In this document: in pieces, positions 2,581 through 6,918 of the stretch
Layout of the letters: every line of letters starts with the position of its first letter
Numbering within the stretch: position 1 is the first letter of the stretch
Position numbers and translations under genes: made by a program
Origin: an uncultured Hoeflea sp.
GTDB lineage: Bacteria; Pseudomonadota; Alphaproteobacteria; Rhizobiales; Rhizobiaceae
DNA: 64,000 nucleotides
Direction: 5' to 3'
Assembly: GCF_947501405.1 (NCBI RefSeq)
Contig: NZ_CANMVK010000004.1
Coordinates: forward strand, 112,843 to 176,842
The notes under the pieces: model-generated
Seen by the model: only the letters and a program-made list of their open reading frames with translations
Told to the model about the DNA's origin: nothing
Database searches by the model: none

Positions 2581-3042
2581 TCAGGATTTGACCGTCGCGG
2601 CCGCACCGACCCCGAATTTTTCGGCCAGCGCATCGGGCAGCCGCCGGGCCCGTCCGAGCCCGTTGATCACAGCCACGGTGACGCGCGCGCTGGCGAGAAG
2701 ATGGTCTTCCCGCGAGATTGTCTGGTTAAGCATCATGCGTGCGCCGCGCACCTCCTCGGACAGGGTCATGATGGTCAGCACATCGTCCATCCGGGCGGGG
2801 GATTTGAAATCGATCTCCATGCGCCGCACCACGAAAGCGGTGGCCTCCGCCGGATCCTGTTCCGCGTGCAAGGCACCTTGCGACACCCCCAGAAGCCGGA
2901 TGAAATCGGTGCGGCCACGCTCAAAGAAGTGCAGGTAGCGGGCATGGTAGACAAAGCCGGAGAAGTCCGTGTCTTCGTAATAGACCCGTTGCACAAGCTC
3001 GTGCCCACCCTCAATCAAACGGCCGGAGATGCAACTGGTCAT
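2581..3042 (-). CDS. ybgC: Tol-Pal-associated acyl-CoA thioesterase YbgC
   Basis: RVYYEDTDFSGFVYHARYLHFFERGRT hotdog-fold motif; upstream of tolQ. Confidence 0.95.
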   Translation of the reverse strand: MTSCISGRLIEGGHELVQRVYYEDTDFSGFVYHARYLHFFERGRTDFIRLLGVSQGALHAEQDPAEATAFVVRRMEIDFKSPARMDDVLTIMTLSEEVRGARMMLNQTISREDHLLASARVTVAVINGLGRARRLPDALAEKFGVGAAATVKS

Positions 3043-3379: not shown

Positions 3380-3889
3380 TCAGAGATCGCCATCGTCCCA
3401 GATCAGGTGCTCGGTATGCTCCGGCAACGCCTCGATACGCTCGGCCAGAAAGACCGGCGGCAATGGCAGCGCCTCTAACACAGCGCGGGTGGCCGGGACC
3501 CATTTGAACTCAAGCGGGTTCTTGCCATCGACAACCTCGTGCACAATCCGGCCATCAGCCGCAAAGGCGAAATCCGAAGGCAGATCCATCAGGTAATACC
3601 AGCCGAATTCGTGCCAGGCCTTGTCTTCAAAATGGAAAAAATTCTCCACCAGAAACAAAAGCCGGCCGATGCTGGCCTCGACCCCGAGCTCTTCCTGCAT
3701 CTCCCTGACCAGGGTCGCGCGGCTGTCCTCGCCAAGCTCCGCCGTACCGCCGGGTATGGTCCAGAACGGCTCATGCACCGCGCGGTGGACCAGCAGGTAA
3801 CCGTCGCGCAGCGCCAGCCCCGCAACCCGGGCGTTGAAGCGCCGGCCCTGATCCTTGAAACGGATGGTGCGGCGGCCGGGTCCGGTCAT
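3380..3889 (-). CDS. NUDIX hydrolase
   Basis: Nudix box [24 protein letters not shown]; ATGA overlap with the ruvB stop. Confidence 0.9.
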
Positions 3890-4923
3890 TCTTCCTCGAA
3901 CAGGCTCGCCTGACTGGCGGCGAGATCCTTTGGCGGATTGAGCCCGATATGCCCCCAGGCGCGCGCCGTCATCACGCGGCCGCGCGGCGTGCGCTGCAAA
4001 AAGCCCTGCTGGATCAGATAGGGCTCGATGATGTCTTCAATCGCGTCGCGCGGCTCGGACAATCCCGCCGCGATGGTTTCGATCCCTACCGGCCCGCCAC
4101 CGAAATTCCGGGCGATCATGTCGAGATAGCGCCGATCGAGCTGATCCAGCCCGATGCTGTCCACCGACAGCCGGGTCAGTGCTTCGTCGGCGATTTTCTG
4201 CGTCACCGCCTCAGCCTTGGCCACTTCGGCGAAATCCCTGACCCGCCGGAGCAGCCGGCCGGCAATCCGCGGCGTACCGCGCGCCCGACGGGCGATCTCC
4301 AGCGCACCGTCATCGGTTATGCCAAGCCCCATGATTCGCGCCCCGCGCCGAACGATCAGTTCTAGCTCTTCGACGGTGTAAAACTGCAGCCGAACCGGAA
4401 TACCGAACCGGTCCCTGAGCGGTGTGGTGAGCAGCCCCAGCCGCGTGGTCGCCGCCACCAGCGTGAACCGCGACAGATCGATCTTCACCGAGCGCGCCGC
4501 CGGCCCCTCGCCGATGATCAGGTCGAGCTGGAAATCCTCCATCGCCGGATAGAGTATTTCTTCAACCGCCGGATTGAGCCGGTGGATCTCGTCGATGAAC
4601 AGCACATCGCGGTCCTCGAGATTGGTCAGAAGTGCAGCCAGATCGCCGGCCTTGGCGATCACCGGCCCCGAGGTGGAGCGGAAATTCACCCCCAGCTCCT
4701 TGGCCATGATCTGCGCCAGCGTGGTCTTGCCGAGCCCAGGCGGCCCGACGAACAACACATGGTCGAGCGCCTCGGCACGGCCCTTCGCGGCTTCGATAAA
4801 CACCTTGAGATTGGCCCGCGCCTCGGCCTGCCCGGTGAATTCGTCAAGCGACTGCGGACGCAAGGTCGCATCGACATCCTCGCCGCGCTTGTCCGGCGAT
4901 ATCAGGCGCTCAGCTTCACTCAT
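3886..4923 (-). CDS. ruvB: Holliday junction branch migration helicase RuvB
   Basis: [12 protein letters not shown], Walker [33 protein letters not shown]. Confidence 0.99.
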
Positions 4924-5318
4924 GCAAGCAGTTCCATTCCGTCCACCATTTTGGCGGCCTTTCGGTCAAAAGTCATGGTCTTCTCACACCCGTTTTCCCG
5001 GTTGATTCCGGCAATAATCACATCCGAAACATCCGGATGTGGTGAATGCAGCCAGTTCGCCCAACTCTCCATCCGCATAGTATCGGGAACCTTGATTTCC
5101 ACCGTGTCAAGCAATCCGGCCAGTTGGTTTCGTGCAACCTGCGGATCAATGCCATATGCCCGTTCGAGCACCCACGCCACCTCTGCGATCACGACCGGAT
5201 TGACGAACAATGGCCGGTCGCCGCTGCTCGCCTTGACCAATTCCACCGCGGCCGTGAATTGCTGCGGGTCATCCCGTGTCAGCAGCCGGACGAGAATGCT
5301 GGTATCAATCCCGATCAC
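4920..5318 (-). CDS. vapC: PIN-domain (VapC-type) toxin
   Basis: GTG start at 5318 ([12 protein letters not shown]); acidic PIN residues in DTS, IAEVAW, DVSD, TFD; overlaps the upstream antitoxin by 14 nt and ruvB by 4 nt. Confidence 0.88.
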
Positions 5319-5571
5319 GCGATCGTCCGTGCCGCTGAGAGATGGCGGAACCAATGGCCCGGTTCATGTCCCTAACGGACACCGGCGCACGGTCTGGTGC
5401 GTGCAGAACTCCCGCAAACTCGAGCGCACTTCTGTTTTTGGGCACAATCGTGACCTTACCGTCAACGATTTCGTAGCCAATCCGGTCTCCGGCTTCGAGT
5501 CGCAAAAACTCCCGCACTTCAACCGGAATGGTGGTTTGGCCCTTGGCCGTTATCTTGGACTCCGCGCCCAC
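5305..5571 (-). CDS. AbrB/MazE/SpoVT-family antitoxin
   Basis: SKITAKGQTTIPVEVREFLRLEAGD swapped-hairpin signature; AAGGA RBS; directly upstream of the PIN gene. Confidence 0.88.
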   Translation of the reverse strand: MGAESKITAKGQTTIPVEVREFLRLEAGDRIGYEIVDGKVTIVPKNRSALEFAGVLHAPDRAPVSVRDMNRAIGSAISQRHGRSRDRD

Positions 5572-5589
5572 TTCCTTGCATCCTTCAAA

Positions 5590-5632
5590 TTCCTTACTTT
5601 TCTATTCTAGTAAGGAAACCAGCCAAGGGCAA
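5590..5632 (-). promoter_or_regulatory. Sigma70 promoter and inverted-repeat operator of the TA module
   Basis: TTGCCC(5632-5627)-17 nt-TAGAAT(5609-5604); perfect 9-bp inverted repeat TTCCTTACT-N10-AGTAAGGAA (5590-5617) flanking the -10. Confidence 0.7.
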
Positions 5633-5638
5633 GGAATG

Positions 5639-6256
5639 TCATCGCGCCAGTTCCTTCAACCCGAGCCGGATCAGTTTGGCCGAATCGGCGCCTTCGCCCG
5701 CTTCCTTCATCGCCGCGGCGACCGCATTGGCGGCCTGATCGCGCGAATAGCCGAGATTGCTAAGCGCCGATACCGCATCGGCCACCGGCGCCGACGCCAC
5801 TCCTTCGCCCAGTTCCTGCTTCAGCCCGATGGCGCCGCCGGCCTCGCCTGCCAGCGCCGGCGCCTTGTTCTTGAGTTCGGTGACAATCCGCTCCGCCACC
5901 TTCTTGCCGACGCCGGGCGCGCGGCTGACCATGGCGATGTCGCGCAGCGCGATCGCATTGGCAATTTCCGAACCGCTCAGCGTCGACAGCACCGCCAGCG
6001 CCACTTTCGCGCCGACGCCCTGGACATTTTGCAGCAGCCGGAACCATTCCCGCTCAAGCGCGGTCTCGAAGCCGAACAGCTTGAGCTGATCCTCACGCAC
6101 ATAGGTTTCGATAAACACCGCCGCCGCCTCGCCCGGCGACCCGAGCCGCGACAGGGTCCGCGCCGAGCAGAACGCCACGTAACAGACCCCGTGCACATCG
6201 ATGAGCACATGGTCGTCGCCGATTTCCTCGATGGTGCCTTTGAGTTTGCCAATCAT
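5639..6256 (-). CDS. ruvA: RuvA
   Basis: MIGKLKG start at 6256; [10 protein letters not shown] and [11 protein letters not shown] HhH motifs; ALSNLGYS C-terminal domain. Confidence 0.98.
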
Positions 6257-6266
6257 CCAGGTGTCC

Positions 6267-6773
6267 TCATTCCGCCGCCATGCGCCAGGCCGGCGAACTC
6301 CGATGGTGCGCGTGGCAAATGGCGATAGCAAGCGCATCCGCGGCGTCGTCGCTGTCGAAAGACGCCTTGGGCATCAGCACCTTTACCATCATGTGAATCT
6401 GCTTCTTGTCGCCATGGCCGACGCCGATCACCGCCTTTTTGACCGCGTTGGGCGCATATTCGGCCACCCTCAGTCCCGCCCGCGATGGCGCCAGCATGGC
6501 GATGCCGCGGGCCTGACCGAGTTTCAGCGTCGCCGTCGCATCCTTGTTGACAAAAGTATGCTCCACCGCCGCTTCAAACGGGCGGTAGAGATGCAACACC
6601 TCTTCCAGCCCGTCATAGAGCTGGTTCAGCCGCGAGGCGAGATCAAGCTTATTGTCGGATTTCACGGTTCCCGAGGCGACAAAACGAAGCGAATTGCCAA
6701 GCGTCTCGATGACGCCCCACCCGGTGCGCCTGAGCCCCGGGTCCACGCCGATGATTCGAATCGCCTCTGCCAT
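6267..6773 (-). CDS. ruvC: Crossover junction endodeoxyribonuclease RuvC
   Basis: [32 protein letters not shown]. Confidence 0.98.
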
Positions 6774-6918
6774 GTACAAAACCCTATCTGTGACAGCGTC
6801 AGGTTTCCATTGAAAATGTGAACAAACCAAAAACAAACGCCCACGAGACGTGGTTTTGGCTTTTTGGCCACGGCATCCCTACATGGGGGTATCTTGCAGC
6901 ACTGTAGAAAGCCCGCCC

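Follow-up and report, generated by a model that had tools for sequence, protein, structure and literature searches.

The toxin-antitoxin (TA) cassette that separates ruvA from ruvB in an uncultured Hoeflea sp. is likely to be a self-regulated selfish element that has become part of the path by which ruvB is expressed, rather than a regulator built for that purpose. The cassette is a vapB-vapC pair and lies in a 64,000-nucleotide (nt) stretch of contig NZ_CANMVK010000004.1, referred to here as the window; all coordinates are positions in it. The cassette appears to occupy a fixed slot of the ruvC-ruvA-ruvB operon, to which it would bring its own sigma-70 promoter. Transcription of ruvB would then proceed both from this promoter and by read-through from ruvC-ruvA, and its translation would probably occur largely by reinitiation after vapC, as the anatomy and the conservation of the junction suggest. 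Once fused to ruvB, the cassette would be entrenched because its loss would take away the ribosome site of ruvB. Addiction would add to this entrenchment.

The cassette and its junction with ruvB

Genes were identified by Pfam and NCBIfam profile searches of the open reading frames (ORFs) of the window, which recognized RuvC, RuvA and RuvB at the equivalog level. Every gene of the ruvC-ruvA-antitoxin-vapC-ruvB string is on the minus strand, as read from both the ORF list and the sequence. The features of the region are as follows.

6820..6834, minus strand: LexA-type box with one mismatch (GTTT-N7-GTTC), about 45 nt upstream of the ruvC ATG
6773..6267, minus strand: ruvC, Holliday junction resolvase (ATG 6773..6771; Pfam RuvC 5.2e-46, TIGR00228 3.2e-41)
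6256..5639, minus strand: ruvA (TIGR00084 2.1e-56; RuvA_N, HHH_5 and RuvA_C domains; stop TGA 5641..5639)
5572..5638, minus strand: 67-nt spacer with the promoter and putative operator of the cassette (promoter scan and repeat finder)
5571..5305, minus strand: vapB-type antitoxin of 88 amino acids (aa), GTG start (PF04014 9.2e-8, PF15937 (PrlF) 7e-9, TIGR01439 6.1e-9)
5318..4920, minus strand: vapC, PIN-domain toxin of 132 aa, GTG start (PF01850 3.4e-11)
4920..4937, minus strand: coupling junction (ATGGAA 4937..4932; ATGA 4923..4920)
4923..3886, minus strand: ruvB, AAA+ motor of branch migration (NF000868 9e-155)
3889..3380, minus strand: NUDIX hydrolase gene (PF00293 8.5e-13; ATG 3889..3887)

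The block begins with ruvC, whose stop is 10 nt from the ruvA start, a gap called 'slot 1' below and empty here. The antitoxin consists of an N-terminal AbrB/SpoVT (MazE-fold) DNA-binding domain and a C-terminal tail. The true start of vapC is the GTG at 5318, which lies 12 codons downstream of the start of the longest ORF (5354) and overlaps the antitoxin stop by 14 nt. At the other end of the toxin gene, the vapC stop TGA (4922..4920) and the ruvB ATG (4923..4921) share the sequence ATGA. The original prediction had placed an intact antitoxin-PIN pair between ruvA and ruvB, with a 4-nt overlap of the vapC stop and the ruvB start, and both points were confirmed; the range that it gave, 4920-5632, takes in both TA genes and the promoter. 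It had also described the region before ruvB as free of a terminator and of spare room. This holds on the coding strand, where no terminator-like site was found between ruvA and ruvB.

The ATG of the NUDIX gene (3889..3887) in turn overlaps the ruvB stop (3888..3886) as ATGA, which extends the linked string to vapB-vapC-ruvB-nudix. The ybgC gene (2581..3042) is located further downstream.

To all appearances the cassette is a genuine and intact type II VapBC module of the ordinary kind, with an AbrB-fold antitoxin and a PIN RNase toxin. The acidic tetrad of the PIN domain (D5, E46, D99 and D118) is invariant in an alignment of 14 diverse relatives with identities down to 27%. The AlphaFold model of VapC is confident, with a predicted local distance difference test (pLDDT) score of 94.2 and a predicted template modeling (pTM) score of 0.88. 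Its Foldseek matches are VapC toxins and PIN proteins with template modeling (TM) scores of 0.6-0.77, among them M. tuberculosis VapC toxins, Rickettsia felis VapBC2, Caulobacter VapBC1 and Shigella VapC. For the antitoxin, a sequence search of the PDB returned only spurious weak matches to the beta-lactamase inhibitor protein. In the 20 Hoeflea species with the orthologous pair, the median ratio of nonsynonymous to synonymous substitution (dN/dS), calculated from saturated synonymous distances, is 0.09 for the antitoxin and 0.12 for the toxin, compared with 0.07 for ruvA and 0.04 for ruvB. The low dN/dS of both genes, the invariant tetrad and the confident fold together indicate that both proteins have been kept by selection over a long time. 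The antitoxin and the toxin are inherited together in every occupied locus, and this genome contains a single VapC of the family. The GC content of the cassette is 56-59%, which is 6-9 points below the 65% of its flanks and 15 points below at third positions.

The spacer between ruvA and the antitoxin contains a sigma-70-type promoter, TTGCCC-17-TAGAAT (5632..5604), with the -35 hexamer at 5632..5627 and the -10 hexamer at 5609..5604. It is the only sigma-70-like match on the coding strand from ruvC to the end of ruvB in a promoter scan that covered the sigma-70 consensus. Four symmetric half-sites, TTCCTTGC (5636..5629), TTCCTTAC (5617..5610), GTAAGGAA (5597..5590) and GCAAGGAA (5579..5572), are arranged in the same spacer at distances of 18-20 nt, about two helical turns. 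The repeat finder detected a perfect 9-nt inverted repeat, TTCCTTACT-N10-AGTAAGGAA, that brackets the -10 hexamer. In the outer inverted pair, TTCCTTGC ... GCAAGGAA, the left arm overlaps the -35 hexamer and the right arm is the Shine-Dalgarno (SD) sequence of the antitoxin. The motif CCTTAC-N7-12-GTAAGG occurs once in the 4.46-Mb genome, and its form in the window is CCTTAC-N12-GTAAGG. AbrB-type VapB dimers in the VapBC hetero-octamer bind half-sites laid out in this way (FitAB, R. felis VapBC2), and the Hoeflea VapB-VapC complex is likely to bind them and to repress its own promoter. The original prediction had allowed for a promoter belonging to the cassette itself, and the one found is accompanied by this operator-like palindrome.

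With at most one mismatch allowed per arm and a spacing of 11-12 nt, the operator was present in 68 of 84 ruv-linked cassettes. Among these 68, the hexamer next to the left arm is preceded by a TTG at a distance of exactly 17 nt in 63, and the sequence TAnnnT lies directly 3' of the left arm in 60. Family members that stand alone, found in Nitrospira, Desulfobacterales, Beta- and Gammaproteobacteria, have similar CCTTAC/GTAAGG half-sites when judged by eye, and the strict spacing rule holds in only 5 of 26 of these solo members. The operator motif looks like a property of the cassette family, although not firmly so.

When related ruvA-ruvB junctions were surveyed, as the original prediction had suggested, an NTGA overlap of the toxin stop and the ruvB start was found at 72 of 73 ruv-linked junctions (ATGA at 58, GTGA at 11 and TTGA at 3). 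The sequence ATGGAR (ATGGAA or ATGGAG), which places GGAA or GGAG 8 nt before the ruvB start, is present at 69 of the 73. In the window this SD-like GGAA is supplied by the Met-Glu codons of the ...GMELLA tail of the toxin. Ruv-linked toxins end almost invariably in ...PGMELLx; the solo members have variable G[F/M]xLL tails of differing lengths. The ruvB gene begins with Met-Ser (ATGAGY) alike in occupied and empty loci (32 loci), which identifies the overlapped ATG as its true start.

The lack of intergenic space of its own, the stop/start overlap and the SD-like toxin tail all point to ruvB as the distal cistron of the cassette transcript, and very probably it is expressed through the cassette. 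A ruvB promoter inside vapC, which the original prediction had named as the finding that would speak against it, left no conserved signal in the sequence: the scan gave no sigma-70 match within vapC, and synonymous variation in vapC shows no dip except at the vapB-vapC overlap, so that there is no sign of an embedded conserved promoter. Transposon mutants of R. leguminosarum 3841 in vapB or vapC (RL3987/88) show the same attachment defect as mutants in ruvA and ruvB (PMC11406972), and this shared defect fits polarity through one transcript.

Distribution and history of the occupied slot

The ruvA-ruvB junctions of 31 congeners were compared with that of this genome; H. halophila KCTC 23107, a culturable strain with a type I cassette (see below), is one of the relatives. 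An AbrB-PIN pair lies between ruvA and ruvB in 27 of the 32 Hoeflea species and belongs to at least three allele classes, some of them tandem or decayed. The orthologous pair, called type I, is found in 20 species and this genome, with proteins 65-77% identical. Type II alleles, 35-43% identical and of at least three subtypes, occur in five species. A type III pair, 27-30% identical, occurs in three; in two of these it is the second of two tandem pairs, and in the third it lies beside the remnant of a type I antitoxin. One Hoeflea species has a decayed copy. In the remaining five species the slot is an empty ruvA-ruvB spacer of 64-67 nt, which agrees with the view expressed in the original prediction that ruvA and ruvB are normally adjacent. 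On the ruvA+ruvB tree, type I alleles occur throughout the genus, those of type II in three separate clades and empty sites in two. At least seven changes of slot state have occurred within Hoeflea, with two origins of empty sites.

Several individual loci illustrate the intermediate states. At the decayed locus L040 (G028), deletion in the promoter and antitoxin has taken away the operator core and the middle of the antitoxin, and the toxin is internally deleted. In L029 (G017), a frameshifted type I antitoxin stands beside the intact type III pair. Tandem stacking is seen in G008 and G010 and, in another genus, at L121.

Outside Hoeflea, a search of the species-representative genomes of all bacteria found the order ruvA-antitoxin-vapC-ruvB in 52 of the best 80 family matches. 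The genera concerned are Rhizobium, Neorhizobium, Pseudorhizobium, Agrobacterium, Allorhizobium, Ciceribacter, Pararhizobium, Mesorhizobium, Aquamicrobium, Chelativorans, Jiella, Roseitalea, Oceaniradius, Devosia and Pelagibacterium. Among 401 evenly sampled species of the Rhizobium family, 191 have a VapC of the same protein family as the one in the window. Of the best 141 of these 191, 123 abut the ruvB start (99 with a coordinate overlap), 6 are 11-150 nt and 5 are 151-1000 nt from ruvB, and 7 are on broken contigs. When the four genomes of the sample whose junctions had been compared directly (three Hoeflea, and G034 of a neighbouring genus) are added, about 127 of the 401 species (32%) have a family VapC abutting ruvB. 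The insertion is not peculiar to this genome: the survey indicates that the occupied slot is an old feature of the lineage and not a one-off event, the fixed slot being filled in most Hoeflea species and in about a third of the family sample.

The history of the fusion can be followed in three relatives. In G002 and G012, a type II cassette interrupts the native 64-nt spacer near its middle, each end of that spacer being matched by the empty-site spacer, and the vapC stop is 44-47 nt from the ruvB start, both of them within a (CTG)GCATGA direct repeat. G011, the sister of G002 on the flank tree, contains the same cassette minus exactly the segment between the repeats. The unfused state of G002 and G012, set against the fused state of their relative G011, indicates that the fused state arose from the unfused one. 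A deletion between the GCATGA repeats would turn an inserted cassette into a fused one and would at the same time remove the native ribosome site of ruvB. The 3' halves of the empty-site spacers match best the spacers that follow vapC in G002 and G012; among 200 shuffles, none scored as well as this match at four sites and two did so at the fifth. The opposite possibility, that the empty spacer is a fossil 3' end of vapC and all empty sites are deletions, was rejected, since the scores against the vapC end lay at the shuffle mean.

At locus L024 (G012), an orphan -35 hexamer and a left operator arm, both from an earlier type I cassette, are preserved upstream of the current type II cassette. 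These remains point to serial occupancy of the slot.

Type II and type III toxins of Hoeflea nest with alleles of Mesorhizobium, Allomesorhizobium, metagenome-assembled genomes (MAGs) of Phyllobacteriaceae and the Agrobacterium vitis group, and not with type I. No transposition signatures were found around the cassette of the window, where flanking repeats are only short and at chance level. Neither an integrase nor a transposase adjoins it, the neighbours being ruvC, ruvA, ruvB, nudix and ybgC. In the unfused relatives the cassette lies in the native spacer with only the 6-9-nt GCATGA repeat, on the ruvB side. Within the genus, protein identity is 79-88% for ruvA and 88-98% for ruvB. The likeliest route of movement would be allele replacement by homologous recombination through the ruvA and ruvB flanks. 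Wholesale replacement through these conserved flanks would explain both the turnover of alleles and their sharing between genera. The original prediction had also held that the insertion would be hard to lose. This stands in so far as the cassette would be entrenched once fused; it does not stand as a general statement, given the repeated changes of slot state, the two origins of empty sites and the alleles held in common with other genera.

Two further observations concern the ruvA-ruvB gap in other sequences. A MAG contig labelled 'uncultured Rhodobacteraceae' (L057, CALMYO010000170.1) has ruvA and ruvB 80-83% identical to those of Hoeflea and a type I-like cassette 48% identical; it probably represents Rhizobiales DNA that was binned or labelled wrongly. 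In other families of the Rhizobiales (L048-L052: G053, G051, G059, G056 and G045), a ruvA-ruvB gap of 470-1380 nt contains unrelated small genes, some on the opposite strand, for a DksA/TraR zinc-finger protein, a GNAT acetyltransferase, a membrane protein, a Uma2 endonuclease and a LysE transporter. Insertions into this gap are generally tolerated.

Damage regulation, slot 1 and alternative explanations

The original prediction had proposed that SOS-induced read-through from ruvCA would raise the toxin. Genuine, exact LexA boxes of this genome include GAACAAATAAAGAAC, between ssb and uvrA, and GAACACATATAGAAC, before lexA. No exact alphaproteobacterial box (GTTC-N7-GTTC) is present in the window, and the cassette spacer lacks even a box with one mismatch. 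The only candidate is the box upstream of ruvC, which reads GAACAAACCAAAAAC (the reverse complement of 6834..6820) and belongs to a block conserved in all Hoeflea loci that span the region. Its role may be that of a weak LexA site or of a ruvC promoter element. Apart from this imperfect box, an SOS route into the toxin finds no support here.

Slot 1, between ruvC and ruvA, is occupied in 16 of the 31 congeners, and in many other genera, by a second and unrelated pair of an AbrB (83 aa) and a PIN (137 aa) protein, the families of both of which differ from those of the ruvA-ruvB cassette. The loci are L056:824-1563 (Hoeflea sp. BAL378), L013, L017, L019-L025, L027-L029, L032, L033, L036 and L037. 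The stop of the slot-1 PIN gene often overlaps the ruvA ATG, in one allele group as ATGA. All four combinations of filled and empty slots are found in Hoeflea. In Hoeflea sp. BAL378 a perfect LexA box, GTTCTTGACATGTTC (L056:836-850), wraps the -35 hexamer (TTGACA) of the slot-1 TA promoter, and ruvA and everything downstream would be SOS-inducible there through that promoter.

Several findings weigh against the view of a selfish cassette that has become entrenched in ruvB expression. Five congeners live with an empty slot, so that entrenchment is not absolute, and the canonical operator is missing from 16 of the 84 ruv-linked cassettes. An RNA hairpin that masks the ruvB start and forces coupling was considered and rejected, because shuffled sequences fold as well as the 111-nt segment does (z = -0.04); ruvB may thus not depend strictly on upstream translation. 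The GGAA is a weak SD sequence, and the Glu codon wobbles freely between GAA and GAG, so that the conserved Met-Glu may reflect the ancestry of the clade. Ruv-linked and solo VapCs are split by a single branch with a support of only 49. With the ruv-linked toxins on one side of so poorly supported a branch, the motif could be inherited rather than selected. Monophyly of the ruv-linked VapCs is not claimed; a single origin is compatible with the tree.

The same promoter, operator and NTGA anatomy could also be read as adaptive wiring. A stress-responsive promoter repressed by the antitoxin would provide an additional route of RuvB induction, damage-induced read-through from ruvC-ruvA would raise the toxin, and growth arrest would be linked to recombination repair. 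Refilling of the slot is commoner than vacancy, strong purifying selection acts on the two genes, and the LexA-type box with one mismatch upstream of ruvC is conserved in the genus. Stress can reportedly induce TA operon transcription through antitoxin turnover without freeing the toxin, which would make the cassette promoter a usable sensor of stress. Such wiring is nevertheless unlikely, since the cassette promoter has no LexA box, no exact box exists in the window, and the slot is empty in two separate lineages. The operator is unique in the genome, so there are no other obvious targets of the antitoxin, and the interchangeability of alleles only 27-40% identical fits selfish replacement, in which any TA would do, better than a designed circuit. 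Quite doubtful, too, is a scheme in which the ruvCAB operon is a two-slot docking site for a specialised VapBC clade whose members act as recombination-borne drive alleles. Their entry would rely on homologous recombination in the ultra-conserved flanks provided by the ruv genes; cells whose cassette is replaced by an empty or foreign allele would be killed or disadvantaged; and the alleles would be retained by capture of the translation start of ruvB or, in slot 1, of ruvA. A stronger version of the scheme would add co-option by the host, with RuvAB dosage set by TA autoregulation and stress-induced turnover of the antitoxin.

Diverse alleles, tandem stacking, decay and replacement at a fixed address between core genes, together with a GC content below that of the flanks and the presence of unrelated small genes, including the Uma2 endonuclease, in the same gap of other families of the order, are what would be expected of a small hotspot for VapBC systems of the abortive-infection type, driven by a phage arms race and coupled to ruvB only incidentally. 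Such a defence slot is improbable: none of the PADLOC defence models matched either cassette protein at E <= 0.01, no other defence genes adjoin the cassette, only AbrB-PIN pairs fill the slot across the family whereas defence islands have a mixed repertoire, and the near-universal NTGA fusion argues for a constraint on the link with ruvB. There is an equally small chance that the TA genes and ruvB are independent neighbours, in which the overlap is mere compaction and the 3' part of vapC carries both a promoter and a ribosome site for ruvB. De novo loading of ribosomes is conceivable, as GGAA or GGAG is well spaced inside vapC and no hairpin forces coupling, and the promoter scan was restricted to the sigma-70 consensus. 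The vapC gene, however, has neither a promoter-like match nor a window of reduced synonymous change; ruvB starts with GTG or TTG at 14 of the 73 junctions, which would be easier to sustain with reinitiation; and the TA-gene insertions of R. leguminosarum phenocopy ruvAB mutants (PMC11406972). It is very improbable that VapC is non-toxic and that the pair is a domesticated or inert spacer which persists only because it carries the expression signals of ruvB. Decayed versions do exist (G028, G017), and antitoxin insertion mutants of R. leguminosarum could be recovered in a library (PMC11406972), but a role as spacer would not keep the two ORFs complete in over 100 species, and the four catalytic acidic residues, the confident predicted fold and the low dN/dS of both genes over saturated synonymous distances argue the same way.

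Related systems and significance

The closest solved structure to VapC is that of PcrIIC1 (PDB 8wmm), which comes first among solved chains in the sequence-profile comparison (6.8e-9) as well as in the fold comparison (TM 0.77, 22% identity). It is the only PDB match of VapC by sequence profile, and in fold it ranks above the classical VapC toxins. PcrIIC1 is a PIN-like accessory partner of type II-C Cas9 and works bound to Cas9, whereas the Hoeflea locus contains no cas genes; neither an antitoxin partner nor a ruv context has been described for PcrIIC1. The VapBC modules of R. felis (VapBC2, 3zvk), Shigella (5ecw) and Caulobacter (VapBC1, 5k8j) likewise have the PIN fold and the acidic tetrad, and like the Hoeflea pair they have a palindrome over the promoter and a small, overlapping, upstream antitoxin of the AbrB type; in these characterised modules the antitoxin binds inverted repeats in its own promoter. 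Their identity to the Hoeflea VapC is only 14-19%, however, and they are stand-alone or plasmid-borne and without fusion to a downstream housekeeping gene.

YafO and HigB are ribosome-dependent mRNases, and their modules are driven from LexA-repressed promoters. The modules concerned, E. coli dinB-yafN-yafO-yafP and Caulobacter higBA, are also TA pairs transcribed or regulated together with DNA-damage genes. The Hoeflea cassette differs from them in its toxin family, in a promoter that has no LexA box, and in having its own operator.

Reported effects of the NtrPR module of Sinorhizobium meliloti concern stress and symbiosis-related transcripts. NtrPR lies outside the ruv operon, and to our knowledge its fusion by a stop/start overlap to a downstream core gene has not been described. 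Like the Hoeflea pair, it is a chromosomal pair of an AbrB-type antitoxin and a PIN toxin from the Rhizobiaceae, and it is mentioned in PMC11406972. In a full-text literature search, TA modules between ruvA and ruvB were not found apart from a passing mention in the same paper, which names RL3987/RL3988 (vapB/vapC) of R. leguminosarum bv. viciae 3841 next to ruvA/ruvB (RL3989/RL3990) and does not analyse the arrangement. RL3987/RL3988 encode a SpoVT/AbrB antitoxin and a PIN toxin within the ruv operon of a bacterium from the same family as Hoeflea. By the labels of that paper they are located upstream of ruvA, in slot 1, whose pairs are of a different PIN and antitoxin family, unlike the Hoeflea pair between ruvA and ruvB.

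The interest of the Hoeflea cassette resides in its context and not in the module itself. A specific VapBC clade is found at a fixed address in a Holliday-junction operon in about a third of a large family, with the toxin stop almost always fused to the ruvB start and with alleles swapped between species and genera. Polar and coupling effects are to be expected in knockouts or tagging of ruvA, ruvB and the TA genes and in transposon sequencing (Tn-seq), of which the attachment screen in R. leguminosarum is an example. Empty, unfused, fused, stacked and decayed states exist within one genus, so that the cost and benefit of each are measurable. The slot is thus a natural system for the question of whether chromosomal TA modules are selfish passengers or are put to use by the host.

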